Source of the DNA: Fretibacterium sp.
GTDB taxonomy: Bacteria > Synergistota > Synergistia > Synergistales > Aminobacteriaceae
NCBI GenBank assembly: GCA_024695065.1
Contig: JAILIX010000074.1
Span: forward strand, 24,459-48,458
DNA length: 24,000 nt
Direction of reading: 5' to 3'
The notes beneath the pieces were generated by a model. It was not told the origin of the DNA. It saw nothing but the letters and a program-made list of their open reading frames with translations, and made no database searches. Within the stretch, counting starts at the first letter, position 1. The number at the start of each line of letters is the position of its first letter. Made by a program: the position numbers and the translations under genes. This document shows positions 2,604 through 12,155 of this stretch, piece after piece.

Positions 2604-3211
2604 CCGCTTTGCCGCAAAACTTCTATCTGGCGGACACCGCAGCCGTTGCCCGCAAACTTCTGGGGCAGGTGCTGGTCCACGAGTCTGCCGGGGGAAGGGC
2701 GGCAGGGATTATTGTGGAAACTGAGGCTTATAAGGGCCGGACGGACGCCGCCTGCCACTCCGCCGGGCTGGACGCGCCCCGGCCGGGCCACCGCACTGAG
2801 GTGATGTTCCGCGCCGGAGGGTGTGCTTACGTCTATCTGATTTATGGAATGTACTGCTGCTTCAACGTGGTGACAAGGCCGGCGGGCGTCGCTGAGGCGG
2901 TGTTGATCCGTGCACTGGAGCCCACAGAGGGACTTGATGTGATGAGGACGCGCCGTCGCGTGGAGGGGGAACGCCAGCTCTGCAGCGGACCGGGGAAGCT
3001 CTGTCAGGCCCTGGGGATTACCCGGGCGGAAAATGGCTTTGACCTGACCTCCGGCCCTCTGCGAATCCTCAGGGGCAAGGCCGTTCCTGACTCCAAAGTG
3101 GCCGTCACGCCGCGCATCAATGTGGACTACGCCGGGGCGGACGCGCTTCTGCCTTACCGGTTTGTGGTGAAGGACAGCCGTTTTCTCAGCAGAGCTTTCA
3201 GTCAGCGTTGA
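2600..3211 (+). CDS. mpg: DNA-3-methyladenine glycosylase (Mpg/AAG family)
   Basis: ATGA start/stop overlap with coaD. Family hallmarks are present: 'FY..DT..VARKLLGQVLV', 'GIIVETEAYKG..DAACHS', 'MF..GG.AYVYLIYGMYCCFNVV'. Confidence 0.9.
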   Translation: MTALPQNFYLADTAAVARKLLGQVLVHESAGGRAAGIIVETEAYKGRTDAACHSAGLDAPRPGHRTEVMFRAGGCAYVYLIYGMYCCFNVVTRPAGVAEAVLIRALEPTEGLDVMRTRRRVEGERQLCSGPGKLCQALGITRAENGFDLTSGPLRILRGKAVPDSKVAVTPRINVDYAGADALLPYRFVVKDSRFLSRAFSQR

Positions 3212-4013
3212 TGGGAGCCGTAGGGGATGTCCGGGGCTTTCCCCTGCCCTCCTGACGGGTGAACAGCGCCGTTGCGTGGCCGGTGGTGCGTTCGGAGGGC
3301 CCCCTGATAAAATCGGCGGAGTTGCTGCGTTCCAAAATCTCAGCGCGGGTAAGCCCCAGACGCTTCATCAGCATCAGGAAGAGCCGCGCCCCCCTCGGAC
3401 AGTCAATGTCCGCATCGTTCAGCGCCGCAAGGCGGAAATTTTGAATCTGTTCAAGGCTCCGGGCGTCCTCGGCATCAGATTGCTCCCGCGGCTTGTAGTG
3501 GGATAAATCCATGCTGAGAAGGACAAGGCTGTCCCCGTCCCGCAGCAGTTCCTCCAGAGCCTGGCACATGCGCAAAACCTGCAGATCCGTTGCGGAGGAC
3601 CTGACGATGATGGACAGGACGGACGTCCCGGGAAAGAATTTTGCGATACGTGGAATATGCTCTGTGATGCAGTGGTCGCGGCGGGCAACCTCGTCCTGGC
3701 GGAAAAGACCAGCAGCCTTCGCGCCCTCAGCGTCCCCGCGAAGAAGGTTTTCCCTGCCCCAGTCCGACGCGCCGGCGACGATGTTCCGCTTCGCCCGGTG
3801 GAAATGGTCCGGCCCAATGACGATAACGCGCCGGGGGCGCGGATTTATGGATTGGATACGGGCATAGAGACGATCAATCAGGGCTCCGGCCACACCGTGA
3901 TGCGGCGTCAGGGCTCCCACCACCCCGCCGCAGCAGGGCAGGGCGAAAAAGAAAAGGGCGGCGGCAAGCGCCGCCGTCCTCATCCTGAACAGACTACTGA
4001 TACAGTTTCTCAT
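3198..4013 (-). CDS. Memo-like protein (AmmeMemoRadiSam protein B family) with hydrophobic signal-like N-terminus
   Basis: Memo-family motif positions are present: 'TPHHGVAG' (PHAGY-like), 'VIVIGPDHF', 'DHCITEHIPRIAKFFP' (EHS..PFL-like), 'LLSMDLSHY' and 'NSADF....TTGHATALF'. The start may instead be the ATG at 3983 (MRTAALAAALFFFALPCCGG). The 3' end overlaps mpg convergently by 14 nt. Confidence 0.7.
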   Translation of the reverse strand: MRNCISSLFRMRTAALAAALFFFALPCCGGVVGALTPHHGVAGALIDRLYARIQSINPRPRRVIVIGPDHFHRAKRNIVAGASDWGRENLLRGDAEGAKAAGLFRQDEVARRDHCITEHIPRIAKFFPGTSVLSIIVRSSATDLQVLRMCQALEELLRDGDSLVLLSMDLSHYKPREQSDAEDARSLEQIQNFRLAALNDADIDCPRGARLFLMLMKRLGLTRAEILERSNSADFIRGPSERTTGHATALFTRQEGRGKPRTSPTAPINAD

Positions 4014-6468
4014 TCCAGGCAGGCAGGAACTCCGTCAGGTCCTCTCCGCCGTAAACCTTTGCCTTCCACTCATCATCGTTCATACGGCGTTCCAGCATGG
4101 GGCCGACGAAGGTGTAGTAGGAGTACATGAAGCCCTCCGTCACGCGGAAGCCGCCGGACTTGTCGTTGACATAGACGTGGATTTTGCGCGGCGCGCCTGT
4201 GGCCATGTAGAGAACGCTTCCCTTCTCAGCATCCGTGGCTACGTCTGCCACCAGCGCCATTTTGAGCATATTCTGCCCCGTTTCGCCCATCACTTCATAG
4301 ATGTCCTCCGGCAGCACGGACGGCAGTTTGAAGTTCAAAACGGTCTGGAAATCATCGTAGGTCATCGTGTCATCCCTGGCCCGGCCGGCGATGCCGGACA
4401 GGGTCTCCATGCTCTCGGCAAACTCCGTCAGTCTGGTGCGGTAGTGCTCCTCAACGTATTCGTTCTCGTCGGGCAGAAGCGGCTTCAGTGTCTTCGCCAG
4501 ATCGCGGGCCACTGACGCCAGGGCGTCGAACAGCTCCGGCACAGGCTCAACATACCCGCGCGGGATGGGAAGTTCAAAGGGGCCTGCCACCAGTGTGCCG
4601 CCGCCCTCGCCCATCTCCGCGCCGCTCTGCTCCGCGTAGAGGATGGTGTCGTGCTTGAGTTCCGTCATGTTTGCCTCGGCTGTCATCAGTTTCTTGTAAC
4701 TCCAGGCCGGCGTGCCTGCGAAGAACTGACTGGAACCCTTTGACGCAAAATACGTTCTCAGGGCCGACAGAATGGATGTGTAGACATTCGCCCCGTCGTC
4801 GGCCCCGGACCAGGAAGGCCACATCCCGATGAGCTTCTTCTGGTTGTCCTCGTAGCTCTTAAAACTGCTGTACTGTTTGACCTCGTCCTGGGCGGGCTTT
4901 GAGCCCAGCACGGCCATCACGTCCAGCGGGTCCGGCAGGGTGCGGTTCTGCGTGGCCGGATGCGTGAGCGTGTGGAAAATGAACGCGTCAAAGGTTACGC
5001 GCCGGGGCAGAAGGGCGAATTTCTTGCCGGCGAGCTTCTGAATGACACTGCCCTTCCCGGCCTTGTCCAGTGCCTCCATCAGGGCCTTCACCCTGTCCGG
5101 CTTGCCAAGATCCGCAAGCTTGAAGGGCCTGAGCGCCTTTGACAGCGCCTCGGGAGAGTTGACGTTGGAACCGCCTACGAGCGTTGTGATGGGGTCGTAG
5201 AGCGCGCGCCAGCGTTTCTGCACCGCCGGAGCGGTGAGGAGCTTGTTGAGGATGAGCGTCGCCGCCGCGCCGGTCTCACTGTCCAGAGGCCAGCCTGTTC
5301 CCAGCAGGTATGTCGCACGGAAGTAGGCCTTCAGGTCGTCGTTCAGCGTGTAGTGTCCCCTGGGCCCGAAGAGACTGAAGTCCTGAGGCAGTTCCGTGAA
5401 GGGGTTGGCCCCCGCGCCTTCGCCGCTCATAACGCCCTGGGCGAAGTCCTGAACGTCCCCGGGAAGCTCCGAGCCGCCGTTCGTGATGAGGTGCAGAGCC
5501 AGAGCCAGGAATCCGGACACCTTTCCTCTGGCCTTTTTTTCCAGTTCCGAGGCGGGCTTGGGCTGTTTCTTCAGTGCGTCTCTCATGGCTGTTACCAGGT
5601 CCGCTGTACGTGAGACCAGAGCCTTCTCCTCGACCTTCTGAAGCGCGCGGTCAAAGTACAGATGAAGGGCGTGAAGCGGCAGGTCCGCCGTGATGAACTT
5701 CGGCGTGTGTATATTCATGTCCCCATAGAGGTCCACCATGTCGTCCTCACGCAGAAATTCCGGGATAATGGGGGAGGGGGCGACATAAAAGCCATTTTTC
5801 AGCAGGAACTTTTTCACATCGCCGTCGACGGAGTCAGGCAGGTTCTCCTCCTCCACCCGGGAGAGCTCCGGCTTCGATGCGGCCAGATCCCGCAGATCCG
5901 CTTCCGGCAGCCACGCACACCGGCGGTCTGATCCTGCGAAGTCCGCATCCACACCCTCCGGCCTCTCGTCAGAAGAGAAATTTGTGCTGAAGACACAGAG
6001 AATCCACGAGGCGCCGTCTGCCTCGGCCCGGCCCTCTGCCATGACAACGGCGCCGCGGGGCAGGGTGAATTTGGAGTAATCCGACACGGGGCACTTTCCC
6101 GGCAGAAGATGGGGAATCAGTCCCTCTGTCAGGACCTGAAATGGCCGGGCCTCCAACGCCTTATACTTCGGCATGGGGGTCAGCAGCGCAAGCTCGACGA
6201 GACCATTGACGCCCTCTCCCTCCAGGGAAAGCCAGCCCTTCCTCTTTGCCGGTGCGCCCTCCACAACGTCGCCATAGGCCAGTGCGGAGCACTCCATCTC
6301 CTCCGGAATCACCACCCAGCCGCCCTCAGGGGCCGCCTTGGTTTTTGAGAAATCCTCAAAAATGGGGGCCAGCCGTCCGGTGACAACGTACTTCTGCGCT
6401 GCCGCCGCCGTTCCGCAAAGAGCGAGGAGAAGCAGCCCCGCTGCCACAATGCCTGACAACCTTTTCAT
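3994..6468 (-). CDS. Large exported protein, DUF3160-like
   Basis: I prefer the ATG at 6468 (MKRLSGIVAAGLLLLALCGTAAAAQ, a signal peptide) with GGAGG 9 nt upstream; the track start at 6513 lacks both. The central region ('KNGFYV', 'PKFITADLPLHALHLYFDRAL', 'FGPRGHYT') matches my memory of DUF3160. The assignment is unverified. Confidence 0.65.
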   Translation of the reverse strand: MKRLSGIVAAGLLLLALCGTAAAAQKYVVTGRLAPIFEDFSKTKAAPEGGWVVIPEEMECSALAYGDVVEGAPAKRKGWLSLEGEGVNGLVELALLTPMPKYKALEARPFQVLTEGLIPHLLPGKCPVSDYSKFTLPRGAVVMAEGRAEADGASWILCVFSTNFSSDERPEGVDADFAGSDRRCAWLPEADLRDLAASKPELSRVEEENLPDSVDGDVKKFLLKNGFYVAPSPIIPEFLREDDMVDLYGDMNIHTPKFITADLPLHALHLYFDRALQKVEEKALVSRTADLVTAMRDALKKQPKPASELEKKARGKVSGFLALALHLITNGGSELPGDVQDFAQGVMSGEGAGANPFTELPQDFSLFGPRGHYTLNDDLKAYFRATYLLGTGWPLDSETGAAATLILNKLLTAPAVQKRWRALYDPITTLVGGSNVNSPEALSKALRPFKLADLGKPDRVKALMEALDKAGKGSVIQKLAGKKFALLPRRVTFDAFIFHTLTHPATQNRTLPDPLDVMAVLGSKPAQDEVKQYSSFKSYEDNQKKLIGMWPSWSGADDGANVYTSILSALRTYFASKGSSQFFAGTPAWSYKKLMTAEANMTELKHDTILYAEQSGAEMGEGGGTLVAGPFELPIPRGYVEPVPELFDALASVARDLAKTLKPLLPDENEYVEEHYRTRLTEFAESMETLSGIAGRARDDTMTYDDFQTVLNFKLPSVLPEDIYEVMGETGQNMLKMALVADVATDAEKGSVLYMATGAPRKIHVYVNDKSGGFRVTEGFMYSYYTFVGPMLERRMNDDEWKAKVYGGEDLTEFLPAWNEKLYQ

Positions 6469-6516
6469 CAGAAAATGCCTCCTTAAATTATGGATAGTTT
6501 CTGGCTTATTCAACGC

Positions 6517-6525: not shown

Positions 6526-6578
6526 AACATAAATTGTGTTCGAAGTTCTCAGTAAAAAAATCAGGAGGCGTATTTAAA

Positions 6579-7787
6579 GTGGCGTACACAGAAACAACGA
6601 CGACGGGATGGGGCGAACGTCTTGGCAACTCGATTAAGGGGATTGTCACAGGGCTCGTCCTCATCGTGGTGGGAACAGTGCTGCTGTGGTGGAACGAGGG
6701 CAGGACGTTCAAGACCGCCGGGGCCATCGGCGAGGCGCAGATGCTGGCCGAGGATGTGGCGGATATCAGCAAAGCAGACCCGGCGCTTTCAGGCAAGGTT
6801 ATCCATGCCACAGGCCATGCGGACACGAAGGACGTGCTGCGCGATCCTATTTTTGGCATTGAGACGACGGCTATCCGGCTGGAGCGCGAGGTGGAGTACT
6901 ATCAGTGGGAGGAGGAATCCCAATCTGAGACGCGCAAGAAGCTGGGCGGCGGTGAGGAGACCGTTACGACCTATACCTACAAGCAGGACTGGAACTCCAG
7001 CCCCATCGACTCCGGTTCCTTCCACGATCCGAGATATCGGGGCGTCAACACTGTTTTAGCCAACATTGAGGATGAATCGCAGTGGGCTCCCCATGTCACC
7101 TTTGGGGCTTACACGCTGCCGGACAGCCTGAAGCACAGCATCAGCGGAGCCATGCCCATGACCCTCACGAGCGTGGATGCCGTGGCCGTCACGGGGACCT
7201 TCAACATCACTCCCGACAACGACTCATGGCGCCTCTACTACGGCAACGTCTCTGCGGACAAACTGATTCATGTGTCCGGCAGTACGGTTTACCTGGGCCG
7301 TGAGCCGGGCAGCCCGAAGGTCGGGGATGTGCGCATCACATTCAAGCAGGTCCCGCCGGCGGATGTCTCCATTATCGCCAGAGTCATCCGGGATACCTTT
7401 GAGCCCTACATTGCCACCAATGGCTACACCTTCATCCGTCTGGACATGGGGACGGTGAGCAAGGAACAGATGTTTGCGGACGCGAAGAGCGGCAATAACT
7501 TCATGGCCTGGGTTCTTCGCCTTATTGGTCTCCTTGTTGTCGCCGCAGGCATCGGTGCGGTGCTCTCTCCGCTGTCTGTGCTGGCTGACGTCATCCCGCT
7601 GCTGGGAGACATTGTGGGGGCGGGCGTGAGCCTCGTTGCTTTCCTGCTGGGCCTGGCGTGGTCCTGCATCGTTATCGCCGTGGCATGGGTGCGGTTCCGG
7701 CCCATTGTGGCGGGGTGCCTGCTGGCGGCGGCGGCTGTGCTGATCGGCTTCCTGTTCCTGAAGGGCCGCAGAAAGACGGCGCAGTAG
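6579..7787 (+). CDS. TMEM43/DUF1625-family membrane protein
   Basis: Matches are 'GWGERLGNSIKG', an N-terminal TM followed by 'WWNEGR', 'EREVEYYQWEEE', and a C-terminal cluster of hydrophobic helices. I prefer the GTG at 6579 (M/VAYTETTT), which has AGGAGG 10 nt upstream and is in frame with the track start at 6534. Confidence 0.8.
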   Translation: MAYTETTTTGWGERLGNSIKGIVTGLVLIVVGTVLLWWNEGRTFKTAGAIGEAQMLAEDVADISKADPALSGKVIHATGHADTKDVLRDPIFGIETTAIRLEREVEYYQWEEESQSETRKKLGGGEETVTTYTYKQDWNSSPIDSGSFHDPRYRGVNTVLANIEDESQWAPHVTFGAYTLPDSLKHSISGAMPMTLTSVDAVAVTGTFNITPDNDSWRLYYGNVSADKLIHVSGSTVYLGREPGSPKVGDVRITFKQVPPADVSIIARVIRDTFEPYIATNGYTFIRLDMGTVSKEQMFADAKSGNNFMAWVLRLIGLLVVAAGIGAVLSPLSVLADVIPLLGDIVGAGVSLVAFLLGLAWSCIVIAVAWVRFRPIVAGCLLAAAAVLIGFLFLKGRRKTAQ

Positions 7788-7857: not shown

Positions 7858-8478
7858 ATGAAAAAGCTTTTCACCTATGTGCCCTGTAAGGTCGTTGCAG
7901 CATTGGCCATGCTGCTGGCGGTTATGTCGGCGGGGTGTGCCTCGGCAGATCCCAAGATTTCTTTCACAGTCTACCAGTGCTTGGCCTGCGATAAGCTGTT
8001 CCAGAGCTTCCCCGGTGACCAGCTTGAAAGAAAAGAGTTCAGGAAGGGTGATGAGCAGCTTAAACGCGTGTTCCAGTTCGGCAACAGGGGGAAAAACTTT
8101 CCTCCGTGCAGAAAGTTTAAGTATCATATCTTCGAGAAAAAGGGAACGAACTCCACAGGCCTGAGCACTCTGAGCAAATCCAGCATGGCTGAGAACGTTG
8201 CGGTTGTGCGGGACGGCGGTTCTCTCAGCGGGATTACCCTGACGGAATGGGAGTGTGTGTACTGCAAAAAACATTTCTACTCCCTGAATAACGAGAACCT
8301 CAACATCCGGGACTGGGAACGTCAGAGGAGCTATCTCTTCAACCTGAAGGGGCGTCCCATCCCCGAGTGCTCAGCCAGAGATGTCTGGGGGCATATCTTC
8401 TATCCCAAAAAGACGTCGTCTGTGAAGTCCTACGAACTGGCTGTCATCGTCAACGACCTCTACTGGGTCAAGAACTGA
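7858..8478 (+). CDS. Exported protein, paralogue A, with two CxxC...C-x6-H modules (unknown family)
   Basis: Signal or lipoprotein-like N-terminus 'ALAMLLAVMSAGC'. Modules are 'YQCLACDKLF...PPCRKFKYHIF' and 'WECVYCKKHF...PECSARDVWGHIF'. It is clearly paralogous to the next ORF. Confidence 0.75.
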   Translation: MKKLFTYVPCKVVAALAMLLAVMSAGCASADPKISFTVYQCLACDKLFQSFPGDQLERKEFRKGDEQLKRVFQFGNRGKNFPPCRKFKYHIFEKKGTNSTGLSTLSKSSMAENVAVVRDGGSLSGITLTEWECVYCKKHFYSLNNENLNIRDWERQRSYLFNLKGRPIPECSARDVWGHIFYPKKTSSVKSYELAVIVNDLYWVKN

Positions 8479-8497
8479 GCGGAAAGGGGATAGTGAC

Positions 8498-9115
8498 ATG
8501 AGAAAGTTTTTCACGCTCTTTTCATGCGCTGTGTTGGGGGTTTTGATGGCGGGAGCGGCCGCTTTTGCGGATGCCAAGATCCCCATCGTGCAGTATCAGT
8601 GTCTGGTCTGCGACAAGTATTTCTATGGATTTGACGGCGACCCGCTGGACTCTGAGGAGCTCAACGACCCCGATGTCCAGCTCAAACGGGTCTTTCAGCT
8701 CGAAAACCGCGGCAAGAATCTGGATCCCTGCCGCGGCGATTTCAAGGCTCATGTGTTTGACAGGATTGCTGTTTCGTCCAGGCCTGTGAGCGAAGTTGTC
8801 AGGAATATGTCACGAATCGCCGTGCTCAAGGATGGCCCCAAACTGAGGGGGGTTACCATTTCGGAATGGTCGTGCATGGCCCCGGACTGCCTTAAGTCCA
8901 ATATGTTCACACTGAACGACGATAACCTGATGATCACAGACTGGGAGCAGCAGACCGACAAGATATTCAACCTGAAGGGCGAGAAGATCTCCAAATGCAA
9001 GTCGCGCTATATCCCCGGGCACGCTTTCTGGCGCAATCTGTCGAAAAAGTCTTCCCCTGTGACATCCTACGAGATTGCCCAGCGCATCTATGATATCTAC
9101 TATGTCAAGAGGTAA
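8498..9115 (+). CDS. Exported protein, paralogue B, with two Cx2-4C...C-x7-H modules (unknown family)
   Basis: Signal peptide 'VLGVLMAGAAAFA/DA'. Modules are 'YQCLVCDKYF...DPCRGDFKAHVF' and 'WSCMAPDCLKSNMF...SKCKSRYIPGHAF'. It is collinear with paralogue A along its whole length (e.g. QLKRVFQ, ENRGKN, DWE.Q, FNLKG, SYE). Confidence 0.75.
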   Translation: MRKFFTLFSCAVLGVLMAGAAAFADAKIPIVQYQCLVCDKYFYGFDGDPLDSEELNDPDVQLKRVFQLENRGKNLDPCRGDFKAHVFDRIAVSSRPVSEVVRNMSRIAVLKDGPKLRGVTISEWSCMAPDCLKSNMFTLNDDNLMITDWEQQTDKIFNLKGEKISKCKSRYIPGHAFWRNLSKKSSPVTSYEIAQRIYDIYYVKR

Positions 9116-9127
9116 GGAGGAAACGCG

Positions 9128-9883
9128 ATGAAAAAGATCAGCATTCGCAAAGCCGTCGCTGCCGTCCTGCTGGTGCTTCTGGGCTGCTCCGCGGCGTGGG
9201 CCCGACTGCCCAGAACCTACAGGGAGTTCAAGGCGCGCTACAAGACCGAGGCCAAAACACTGGAGGGGGCGGTGAAGCTGTACTTTGAGGGCGTGTTCGC
9301 CTTCATCAACCCGGATACCCGGGCCGAGGCAGGGAAGATGCTGCGCTACGTCCTGCACTACAGCATGCCTGTCGAAAAGTCCAGGGACCTCGCGACGTTT
9401 GTTGAGCGGATGAAGGACCCGGATTACAACTTCTGTTTCCGAAGCTACGCTGAGGGCGCGGAGCCTGGAAACGACTATAAGATGAATCCTGACAACTTCA
9501 GTGTTCGCTTTGACGGCAAGCCCATTAGAGACCCCGGCGGCTACCTTCGGGTCCCTCTGAGGAGTTCCGGGGCTGACAGCGCGCGCATTATCTGGGTGAA
9601 GAAGTTTGAAGACGGACTGTGGTACGTCATCAACAACGCATCCACCTATGTACAGGTGCGCGAACCGAAGACGGAGATGATACGCCGCAGCCACGCCCAC
9701 GACGCGGACTATGATGAGCCGGAACCGGAACCGGAGCCTGAACCGGAACCAAAGCTGGAACCTGAACCGAAACTGGACCCCGAACAGCCGCAGAACGGCG
9801 GAGAGTCCGGCTCGCAGAGCGGGGTTCCTGCCGCGGAGAAGCCGGTGAATGTCCCGGAGCCGGAACCGGTGCCGTGGGATTAG
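9128..9883 (+). CDS. Putative lipoprotein with C-terminal (EP)n / EPK low-complexity tail
   Basis: TAAGGAGG RBS. Lipobox 'LLVLLG|CSA'. A globular region of about 190 aa is followed by 'DEPEPEPEPEPEPKLEPEPKLDPEQP...VPEPEPVPWD'. Confidence 0.75.
   Translation: MKKISIRKAVAAVLLVLLGCSAAWARLPRTYREFKARYKTEAKTLEGAVKLYFEGVFAFINPDTRAEAGKMLRYVLHYSMPVEKSRDLATFVERMKDPDYNFCFRSYAEGAEPGNDYKMNPDNFSVRFDGKPIRDPGGYLRVPLRSSGADSARIIWVKKFEDGLWYVINNASTYVQVREPKTEMIRRSHAHDADYDEPEPEPEPEPEPKLEPEPKLDPEQPQNGGESGSQSGVPAAEKPVNVPEPEPVPWD
9716..9790 (+). repeat. Tandem GAR-CCN hexanucleotide repeat encoding (EP)6-KL-(EP)2-KL-DPEQP
   Basis: Read directly: gagccg gaaccg gaaccg gagcct gaaccg gaacca aagctg gaacct gaaccg aaactg gacccc gaacagccg. 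Confidence 0.9.
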
Positions 9884-9920
9884 GTTGGGATTAGGTATGG
9901 ATAAGCGGGGAGGAAGGGTC

Positions 9921-10646
9921 ATGAGAAAGTTTTTAGCGCTGCTGTCAGTTGCACTTCTGGCGTTTCCTGCGATGGCCGCGACGCCGAAGGTGTGGTACGA
10001 CACGGATGGGGTGAACGTGTGGCGGGGGGAAAAAAATGGCCGGGAGATGACCGATATTGAGCCGAATAAGGTTTTCGGCTCAGATTACTGCTGGTTCGTG
10101 GCGGACTCAGCGGTGTGGCTCTCCAACCTCGGAGATAATGAGGCCGCGCCCATCTGGATCCCCCTCAAAAAGGGCGAAATCTGCCAGGAAATTGAGATGG
10201 ATCCGGAGCAAACCCTTGTGTTTCTGTGCCTGACCACCAAAAAAACTGAGACGATTGCGATTTTTGACCTTGAAGGCAATCGCCTGGCGGAAACGCCGGG
10301 GGTTATGGGCATGGGCGGCTACACCCTTGAGTGGATAGACCCATACCGCTGTCTGTTCACCTACAGTGTGCCGGGCACGCAGCGGGGCAAAAGGTCCGGG
10401 CTTTGGCGCGGGGCCGCGGTGATGGAGCTGTTCGGCAAGGGCGGTGAGGACTTTGAGATTTTAGTGACGCCTGTGGCGGAGCCTACAGCTACAGAGAATT
10501 ACCGTGCGTTTGGCGTTGCCGGAGATGAGTGTGTCGTCATCAAATACACGGTCAAGTCCCCCAAAGAGTGGGAGCAACTGGATGACGGCGCTGAGGAGGC
10601 GGGACAATCCGAGGAGATCCGCATCCCGGTCCCGGCTGCGGGTTAA
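9921..10646 (+). CDS. Exported hypothetical protein
   Basis: The ATG at 9921 follows GGAGGAAGGG and gives 'MRKFLALLSVALLAFPAMA/ATP', a signal peptide. The track start at 9849 overlaps the preceding gene and encodes an Arg-rich non-signal leader. I recognise no family. Confidence 0.65.
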   Translation: MRKFLALLSVALLAFPAMAATPKVWYDTDGVNVWRGEKNGREMTDIEPNKVFGSDYCWFVADSAVWLSNLGDNEAAPIWIPLKKGEICQEIEMDPEQTLVFLCLTTKKTETIAIFDLEGNRLAETPGVMGMGGYTLEWIDPYRCLFTYSVPGTQRGKRSGLWRGAAVMELFGKGGEDFEILVTPVAEPTATENYRAFGVAGDECVVIKYTVKSPKEWEQLDDGAEEAGQSEEIRIPVPAAG

Positions 10647-10664
10647 GCCTCACGAGGCGTATCC

Positions 10665-11135
10665 ATGAGACGCTTTATAATTGCAGTGATGGCGTTGGCT
10701 TTGAGTATTGGGACCGCATTTGCGGACATTCCGGATCCCTCCATCTTCAGCCGCCGGGACCCTGCGGATTTGCCGGAGGTCAAAGCAACGGCGTCCATGA
10801 AAGTGGAACCGGTGAAGGAGCAGAAGAATATTTTGCGACTCAGGCTGACCATGACAGGGGCGGGGCATTACACCTTCTCCGTCAGAGAGGAAGCCGGAGA
10901 GCACGCTGTATGTTCCGGTCAGGGTGACAGTGAAGAGCCCGGCAAAGAGCTGGAGGCGCTGTTTCCCCACAGAGAGATCAGCGGAGACATGAAGGCCCGG
11001 TATATTGCGGAGGCGACATTTGTTCCTCTGAACAGTCCCGGATCTGTGCAGGTTATCCGGCAGGTCCTTGCTGTGTGTCTCATCAATGGCTCCATTGCCG
11101 TTACTGAGGAACTGGATGCGCCGGAGATTATTTGA
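10665..11135 (+). CDS. Small exported hypothetical protein
   Basis: Signal peptide 'MRRFIIAVMALALSIGTAFA/DIP'. It lies 18 nt after the preceding stop. I recognise no family. Confidence 0.6.
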   Translation: MRRFIIAVMALALSIGTAFADIPDPSIFSRRDPADLPEVKATASMKVEPVKEQKNILRLRLTMTGAGHYTFSVREEAGEHAVCSGQGDSEEPGKELEALFPHREISGDMKARYIAEATFVPLNSPGSVQVIRQVLAVCLINGSIAVTEELDAPEII

Positions 11136-11147
11136 CGGAAAACCCTG

Positions 11148-12155
11148 ATGCTCATTCTGTGTACGCTGCTGCATCTGGCCGTTGACGGCGTATGCGGGGC
11201 GGCTCTGGCGGCCTACGCTGTGGAGGAGCCGGATTATGCCAGTATTGTTTATTACTTTCATCTTTACAGCCTGATCGCTTTCGGGTTTCAGTGGATTGCC
11301 GGCTGGGCTCTGGACAGAAAGATGAGCCGGATTTTGCCCGGGCTCGCTCTCGTTCCCATTTTGCTGGGGCTGGGAGCGCTGCCCGGTTTTGGTATTCTCT
11401 CTCAATCCGTTCTCCTGGGTGCTGGGAACTGCCTCTTTCACGTGGCGGCTGGAATACTGGTTCTGCGGCGTTATCCCGGCTACAGGGAGCCCGGTGTTTT
11501 TGTCTCCGGCGGCGCGATTGGCCTTGGACTGGGGCTCAGCCGGTTTTGCGGAACGGCGGTCTTCCTGTGCATCTGTGCCGCGGCGACGGCGGTTCTGCTT
11601 TTCCGCGGGATAAGCAGCAGCTTAAAGATTGAGGCAGCAGAAATACACGATCATGAAACAGAAACGTTCCGCGCTGCGCCGTGGATTTCGGCGGGGGCGG
11701 CGGTGCTGCTCCTCCTCTGTGTCACCCTGCGGGGCTTCAGCGGGGGCAGCGGCGCTTCATGCCACGTGATGTTTTTCCCCTGTGTGTTTGCCGCCGGCAA
11801 GGCGTTGGGCGGCGTCTGCTGTGACGCGATAGGCTGGCGCAGAACGACAGCGTTTATCTTCATTCTGAGCTTTGCAGCGCTGGAAATGATGTCTCTGTCA
11901 TTGTCTGCGGCATGGACGTGGCTCCCTGCCGCGCTGCTTGCTTTCGCGTCCAACATGACTATGCCTCTGACGCTGCGCCTGCTCCATGGATGTTGTCTGG
12001 CCTGTCCGGGGCTGATGTTCGGACTTGCGGCGGGGTGTCTGCTTCCAGGGACGTTCTGGCGTGAGTCATTTTCGATTTTGCCTCAGGGGATGATTGTGAT
12101 TCAATTCCTGAGCCTGTTCCTGGCCGGATCGGCTGTCCGGCGTACTGAGGCGTAG
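11148..12155 (+). CDS. Cys-rich polytopic membrane protein (unknown family)
   Basis: The product is almost entirely hydrophobic segments, roughly 9-10 helices by eye. It has 15 Cys in 335 aa, including 'GGVCCD' and 'HGCCLAC'. It starts 12 nt after the preceding stop with a weak RBS. Confidence 0.6.
   Translation: MLILCTLLHLAVDGVCGAALAAYAVEEPDYASIVYYFHLYSLIAFGFQWIAGWALDRKMSRILPGLALVPILLGLGALPGFGILSQSVLLGAGNCLFHVAAGILVLRRYPGYREPGVFVSGGAIGLGLGLSRFCGTAVFLCICAAATAVLLFRGISSSLKIEAAEIHDHETETFRAAPWISAGAAVLLLLCVTLRGFSGGSGASCHVMFFPCVFAAGKALGGVCCDAIGWRRTTAFIFILSFAALEMMSLSLSAAWTWLPAALLAFASNMTMPLTLRLLHGCCLACPGLMFGLAAGCLLPGTFWRESFSILPQGMIVIQFLSLFLAGSAVRRTEA

Follow-up and report, generated by a model that had tools for sequence, protein, structure and literature searches.

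We analysed a 24,000-nt stretch of contig JAILIX010000074.1 from Fretibacterium sp. (assembly GCA_024695065.1), referred to below as the window, in whose numbering all coordinates are given unless another locus is named. Two adjacent open reading frames (ORFs), A and B, lie there on the same strand, separated by 19 nt and each preceded by a purine-rich ribosome-binding site, and are followed by a gene for a secreted DUF6935 protein (Table 1). In a Fretibacterium sp. metagenome-assembled genome (MAG) the product of each ORF has an exact match, which is annotated there as hypothetical. The original prediction for this DNA had described two neighbouring ORFs of 206 and 205 amino acids (aa) that align end to end as paralogues and are each built from an internal duplication. 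Both ORFs were found where it had placed them, the four module strings that it listed match the translations exactly, and BLASTP aligned the two proteins over their whole length with 43% identity (212 columns, E 3e-55). The duplication within each protein was recovered at two levels. In a pairwise comparison the C-terminal half of A (module A2) matched the N-terminal half of B (module B1) with an E-value of 1.5e-8, and a profile of the N-terminal modules from 41 family members aligned to the corresponding profile of the C-terminal modules with a probability of 99.3% (E 1.3e-20, 71 aligned columns), keeping the Cys and His residues in register. Both the paralogy of A and B and the internal duplication are far beyond chance. 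Comparison of A, B and the DUF6935 gene with their orthologues from other Fretibacterium MAGs gave ratios of nonsynonymous to synonymous substitution rates (dN/dS) of 0.09-0.46, which shows that all three are real genes under purifying selection.

Each of the four modules carries three Cys and one His, spaced C-x2-C-x39-C-x5-H in A1, C-x2-C-x34-C-x7-H in A2, C-x2-C-x39-C-x6-H in B1 and C-x4-C-x35-C-x7-H in B2. The original prediction had named conservation of these residues among homologues as a check on the module, and they are indeed conserved. In an alignment of the close family (alignment A1), C41, C44, C84, H90, C133, C171 and H179 never vary and C136 hardly does. In a broad alignment of 41 sequences, which reaches down to 18% identity with A, the sole invariant columns are C41, C44, H90, C133, C136, C171 and H179, and C84 is conserved in at least 90% of the sequences. 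A census of 180 distinct sequences and fragments found the full set of two CCCH quartets in 141, and almost all exceptions are truncated by contig ends or frameshifts. The only clearly degenerate full-length member in this census is P0084, a metagenome protein of 224 aa in which module 1 is intact and the ligands of module 2 have all been replaced (by N, T, M and N); such a joint loss of four residues is the behaviour expected of one four-ligand site. Exactly six ligand Cys and no others are present in 22 of the 41 mature proteins, and in mature B all Cys and all His occupy predicted ligand positions. With a median pI of 8.9, the mature family proteins are basic.

Table 1. Features of the A-B-DUF6935 locus and of its immediate surroundings (window numbering).
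Feature	Position	Strand	Description
ORF A	7858..8478	+	206 aa; predicted signal peptide and two Cys3-His modules
Predicted Sec signal peptide of A	7858..7947	+	aa 1-30; begins MKK, hydrophobic core, cleavage between ASA and DP
Module A1	7948..8208	+	aa 31-117
Module A1 ligand codons	C41 7978-7980, C44 7987-7989, C84 8107-8109, H90 8125-8127	+	
Module A2	8209..8475	+	aa 118-206
Module A2 ligand codons	C133 8254-8256, C136 8263-8265, C171 8368-8370, H179 8392-8394	+	
ORF B	8498..9115	+	205 aa; paralogue of A; predicted signal peptide and two modules
Predicted signal peptide of B			aa 1-24; cleavage between AFA and DA
ORF B predicted ligands			B1: C35, C38, C78, H85; B2: C126, C131, C167, H175
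DUF6935 protein	9128..9883	+	251 aa, secreted; Pfam PF22043
TMEM43-like membrane protein	6534..7787	+	directly upstream of A; Pfam PF07787, E 2.7e-74
Three genes	9921..12155	+	secreted protein of ~241 aa; secreted protein of 156 aa; multi-pass membrane protein of 335 aa

A model of ORF A, obtained with AlphaFold2 and the family alignment, reached a mean predicted local distance difference test score (pLDDT) of 88.3 and a predicted template modelling score (pTM) of 0.74. The elements of a module follow each other as a long strand, the CxxC turn, a short strand, helices, a second short strand, a loop that contains the third Cys and ends in the His, a long strand, a helix and a final strand. DSSP analysis of the model places C41-x2-C44 at the turn between strands 33-41 and 47-50, C133-x2-C136 between strands 122-133 and 139-143, and H90 just before strand 92-101. 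The CxxC knuckle of the hairpin (Cx4C in B2) and the loop Cys and His in front of the long fourth strand would together form a Cys3His site, holding one structural ion per module, most likely Zn2+, and hence two ions per protein. The description of the module as zinc-ribbon-like, taken from the original prediction, survives in part: it fits the first ligand pair, a classic knuckle, but not the second, whose C-x5-14-H is located in a loop and makes no knuckle.

Searches for relatives outlined a small family. A word-indexed search returned 35 close homologues, all from Synergistaceae or metagenomes, and an exhaustive hidden Markov model (HMM) search through 1.84 billion cluster representatives yielded no more than 51 matches at E <= 0.001, which are either near-relatives (196-206 aa) or members of a distant subfamily (~210-225 aa). 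A second word-indexed search, this time with the broad alignment, brought in no further members. The architecture is uniform throughout, with a signal peptide and two modules, and no member is fused to another domain. The named sources are Synergistaceae of the rumen, gut and mouth, among them the cultured species Fretibacterium fastidiosum (WP_015556231.1), together with Desulfovibrio, represented among others by D. piger (WP_337375057.1). Every host known so far is a strict anaerobe. The original prediction did not recognise the family, and our searches likewise map the module to no known domain. Pfam and NCBIfam scans of A and B gave only sub-threshold matches, to the CxxC hairpin; a profile search of PDB sequences with the family found no match; Foldseek comparison of the A model with PDB and BFVD returned nothing at E <= 0.001; and PADLOC had no matches for A, B, DUF6935 or five neighbouring proteins. 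Literature searches on periplasmic zinc ribbons, on RYYR-CCHC and on the protein accessions found nothing relevant. This Cys3-His family is undescribed, with no Pfam, NCBIfam or PDB relative above threshold. A third lineage of the family, ~41-44% identical to A, was noted at loci L020 (1138-1734) and L022 (6001-6630), in both cases with no B-type or DUF6935 gene as a neighbour, and the member at L022 is flanked by a vWA/TROVE-like gene and by the genes for CodY and HslU.

The export signals assigned to both proteins by the original prediction are shared by the family. In 39 of the 41 members a positively charged N-terminus is followed by an uncharged or hydrophobic stretch of at least 10 residues; positions -3 and -1 are both Ala in A, B and most close relatives, a nearly invariant Asp comes next, and the corresponding residues of A (A28, A30 and D31) are invariant or nearly so in alignment A1. 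A and B are accordingly predicted, from features of their N-termini that are those of a type I signal peptide, to be exported by the Sec pathway. Each would reach the periplasm as a mature protein of ~176-181 aa, a tandem of two homologous alpha/beta modules of ~85-90 aa. A lipoprotein is unlikely, since the Cys in the 'SAGC' sequence of A is absent from most orthologues (which read, for example, 'TAASANADP') and the conserved feature is AxA followed by D.

An extracytoplasmic protein with conserved Cys could use them for disulfides or as a CxxC redox pair, with no metal involved and another role for the His, and we consider this explanation quite unlikely. It draws on the even number of Cys in the mature protein, six in all, and on the compartment, which in many bacteria is the usual one for disulfides. 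It accounts poorly for the odd number of three Cys per module, accompanied by a His that is in register in both modules, and for P0084, which lost all four residues of one module in an all-or-none manner. The CxxC, moreover, is predicted at the turn of a beta-hairpin, in contrast to thioredoxin-type redox sites, where it sits at the N-terminus of a helix. The restriction of the family to strict anaerobes argues in the same direction; many strict anaerobes of such kinds lack DsbA and DsbB. For these four reasons we prefer metal binding to disulfides, and a metal site might act as a covalent-like staple of the fold in a periplasm that, in strict anaerobes, is reducing and suits disulfides poorly.

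If metal is bound, iron has to be weighed beside zinc. Ligation of an Fe-S cluster by three Cys and one His is known from mitoNEET and from the distal cluster of [NiFe] hydrogenase, and such a cluster, or a rubredoxin-like Fe(Cys)3His centre, in each module would make the proteins periplasmic electron carriers. A few family members do give knuckle-level matches to the rubredoxin and desulfoferrodoxin HMMs, and the hosts include sulfate reducers with a rich periplasmic redox chemistry. Nevertheless, we regard this possibility as very improbable. Fe-S proteins are normally exported in folded form by the twin-arginine translocation (Tat) pathway, whereas the signal here is of the Sec type and the twin-arginine motif S/T-R-R-x-F-L-K was found in none of the family N-termini (A starts MKKLF, B starts MRKFF). 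Neither the CDGSH pattern nor the CxxCH haem motif is present, and no redox partner is conserved in the neighbourhood. On closer comparison, a c-type cytochrome was rejected, the residue after the second Cys being D, K, D and L in the four modules. The CDGSH/mitoNEET family was rejected as well: its signature, C-x-C-x2-[ST]-x3-P-x-C-D-G-[SAT]-H, is absent, the spacing here is C-x2-C-x34-39-C-x5-7-H (with Cx4C in B2), and there is no Pfam match.

Among described folds, the closest resemblance is to the zinc ribbon or zinc-knuckle group, reportedly set out in the 2003 classification of Krishna, Majumdar and Grishin. As in a zinc ribbon, a CxxC knuckle lies at the turn of an N-terminal beta-hairpin and four Cys/His ligands tie beta elements together, there within a small domain; unlike in a zinc ribbon, the second pair, in the loop before strand 4, forms no second knuckle, and the module is far larger, with helices and five strands, and is exported. 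The weak Foldseek matches of the A model were to zinc-ribbon-bearing proteins (USP fingers, LysW and RNHCP), and the USP fingers were rejected as a fold match (best E 0.03, template modelling score 0.14). The hairpin, [FYW]-x-C-x2-C-x3-[FY], also recalls the C2H2 zinc finger, and the commonest sub-threshold Pfam matches were to zf-H2C2_2, zf-C2H2_6 and zf-C2H2_jaz, with a best C2H2 score of 14.4 bits against a Pfam cut-off of 22.6. A following helix with two His is missing from the module, however, and in A and B the remaining ligands lie 34-39 residues downstream. Over the 41 members, the recurrent sub-threshold HMM matches covered only the hairpin half of the C2H2 and zinc-ribbon models.

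The HMM search also touched two multi-repeat surface proteins, P0074 and P0079, both of which contain the Pfam RYYR-CCHC domain (PF23674), a domain that is present as well in the IgA protease of Thomasclavelia ramosa (PDB 9qa6). In that protease, CTD2 and CTD4 have an uncharacterised fold, and their Cys/His sites are predicted to bind zinc and considered purely structural (PMC12415215). Like the modules of A and B, RYYR-CCHC is an extracellular beta-rich domain of anaerobic gut bacteria, and its 'YYKCxxCxKxF' resembles the 'VYKCLVCDKxF' of the A/B family. The order of ligands differs, being CxxC...H...C there and CxxC...C...H here, and RYYR-CCHC is a repeat of ~51 aa that occurs in long arrays on Firmicute-type surface proteins. 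Homology was rejected after hhalign comparison with 19 repeats of P0074 and P0079, which gave probabilities of 3.2% for the N-module and 0.1% for the C-module, and PF23674 was not matched by A or B at E <= 1. As judged by these profile comparisons, the two families are not homologous beyond the knuckle. By analogy, the T. ramosa domains may nonetheless offer a helpful parallel for the stapling of extracellular domains by zinc in gut anaerobes.

Immediately after B lies a gene for a member of DUF6935; the match, at E 3.6e-35, scores 121.7 bits where the cut-off is 27 and spans profile positions 2-158 of 158. The association of this gene with the Cys3-His family extends well beyond the window and holds at nearly every family locus. 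The order A-type gene, B-type gene, DUF6935, with short intergenic gaps, is fixed in ~17 Synergistaceae loci whose flanks differ, and a single family gene followed by DUF6935 occurs in F. fastidiosum, at a locus of the distant subfamily (L026) and in D. piger. Viewed from the other side, a family member lies directly upstream in 40 of the 69 metagenome DUF6935 genes that have at least 750 nt of upstream sequence; the remaining ones follow genes for TMEM43-like, TPM-like, leucine-rich-repeat (LRR) or other envelope proteins. In a neighbour-joining tree the A and B orthologues form sister clades and the single-copy forms fall outside them, showing that the pair arose from one tandem duplication in a rumen Synergistaceae lineage. 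Ancestrally, the unit consists of a single Cys3-His gene and DUF6935. In that lineage the first gene of the cassette would have been duplicated once, and both copies have been kept in a fixed order, suggesting that they assemble heteromerically as A-B(-DUF6935) or divide the labour between them. Two family genes also stand together at L055, where they belong to different branches of the distant subfamily. The partnership with DUF6935 is the main addition to the original prediction, which had missed both the partner gene and the wider family.

DUF6935, itself uncharacterised, accompanies the A/B family as a partner but is unrelated to it. An alignment of its homologues contains no conserved Cys, and a nearly invariant HDADYD motif closes the domain. 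Many homologues continue into an acidic Pro/Glu-rich tail with an aromatic end (...PWD, ...EWD, ...STW or ...VWSK); in the window the tail spans ~9698-9883, where an imperfect CCGGAA-type tandem repeat (9715-9785) encodes PEPEPEPEP. The DUF6935 model (pLDDT 85) had no significant match among PDB folds, the best being a cystatin-like protein at E 0.45; the DUF6935 profile matched no PDB sequence, and literature searches found no papers on the domain. In some larger proteins DUF6935 forms the N-terminal domain and is joined to a right-handed, NosD-like beta-helix (L108, 2525-7093; L093, 3938-5842), and the DUF6935 proteins of L108 also carry many ankyrin repeats.

Taken together, we consider it slightly more probable than the opposite that A and B are exported proteins with two structural Cys3His metal sites each, probably filled by zinc, that work with DUF6935 in the periplasm; the Cys3-His protein or proteins and the secreted DUF6935 protein would then most likely form a periplasmic complex. 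We infer metal binding, the identity of the metal and the formation of a complex, and with them a role associated with the envelope. Several points weigh against this interpretation. The total of six Cys is even, and three disulfides, one of them between the modules, are formally possible. The second ligand pair is no canonical knuckle, and its Cys-to-His spacing varies from 5 to 14 residues, being C-x5-7-H in A and B and reaching x14 in distant members. Zinc may be scarce in sulfide-rich habitats. Finally, loci L020, L022 and L025 carry a family member with no DUF6935 nearby, and ~40% of DUF6935 genes are without a Cys3-His partner; the partnership is hence frequent but not obligatory.

The sites might instead be functional, with A and B acting as a periplasmic chaperone, buffer or sensor for Zn, Cu, Ni or Fe that exchanges the metal with DUF6935. 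This is an unlikely alternative in our estimation, albeit one with several attractions: the ligands are invariant, each protein has two sites, some lineages have two such proteins in one operon, the conserved HDADYD of DUF6935 could bind a metal, some DUF6935 proteins are fused to NosD-like beta-helix domains, and export by Sec means that the metal would have to be acquired in the periplasm. In the high-confidence model, however, the sites appear to bridge core secondary-structure elements, as is typical of structural sites, and metal trafficking usually relies on exposed, flexible sites. The neighbourhood contains no conserved metal transporter, regulator or riboswitch, and the flanking genes vary between loci. 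A more far-reaching proposal, which we rate as rather unlikely, holds that the Cys3His centres are the working metal or redox sites of a new two- or three-component periplasmic system with DUF6935 that would be peculiar to sulfidogenic and fermentative gut anaerobes. Built on a fold unrelated to any solved structure, such a system might serve at the envelope to sense or traffic metal or sulfide.

Should the structural metal sites that we favour be confirmed, A and B would define a new exported, metal-stapled domain family of rumen, gut and oral anaerobes and would clearly exemplify how, beyond the cytoplasm of strict anaerobes, Cys/His-metal cross-links take the place of disulfides. The hosts include D. 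piger, a sulfate reducer of the human gut, and F. fastidiosum, which is associated with periodontitis. DUF6935, a widespread domain, gains its first conserved partner and with it a handle for experiments. The family is best regarded as a variant of the zinc-stapled small domains in an unusual compartment, which brings no mechanistic surprise and addresses no long-standing question.

In the wider neighbourhood, the TMEM43-like gene directly upstream of A is kept in this position at L008, L010 and L024, its conservation there being confined to Fretibacterium, and possibly belongs to the same operon as A in that genus only. At L035 (1214-2512) a TMEM43-like gene is immediately followed by DUF6935, without an intervening Cys3-His gene, and DUF6935 may thus also be linked to TMEM43-like proteins. 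Divergent from the TMEM43-like gene, the window encodes a secreted DUF3160 protein of 839 aa (3994-6513, minus strand), and this pair is kept at L024. The three genes downstream of DUF6935 had no Pfam family and are conserved only in another Fretibacterium MAG (L016); they are a Fretibacterium-specific extension outside the conserved core. At L006 and L013, the protein encoded after DUF6935 is weakly related (28% identity) to the N-terminal part of the ~241-aa protein. The remainder of the window consists of ordinary chromosomal housekeeping genes. Rfam found no riboswitch or other RNA leader upstream of A, no RNA family or tRNA was detected, and a promoter and terminator scan gave matches at the level of shuffled sequence. 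A 397-aa antisense ORF (8810..10003, minus strand), overlaps B, DUF6935 and the next gene. Opposite the PEPEP repeat it is rich in runs of Arg, Leu and Phe, and it is almost certainly no real gene but an artefact of GC-rich DNA. Across the region of A and B (8000-9200) the G+C content is 0.50-0.55, below that of the flanks (0.57-0.62).

Other loci offer further context for the cassette. On the D. piger-type contigs L027 and L028 (1-10900), the order runs from an ankyrin gene through a gene for a 162-aa protein, LemA, DUF2207, Cys3-His and DUF6935 to a gene for a secreted protein of 405 aa, IU_nuc_hydro, a second DUF6935 and another ankyrin gene. At L029, the genes ahead of DUF6935 are one for LemA and one whose product, judged by eye, resembles a TPM-domain protein. 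These recurrent uncharacterised envelope proteins may form a larger system. In F. fastidiosum (L030, FP929056.1), two short FibroRuminTarg-family peptides are encoded beside a radical SAM enzyme (2928-4689), a few kb upstream of the cassette, at an unrelated locus that has the look of a system for ribosomally synthesized and post-translationally modified peptides.

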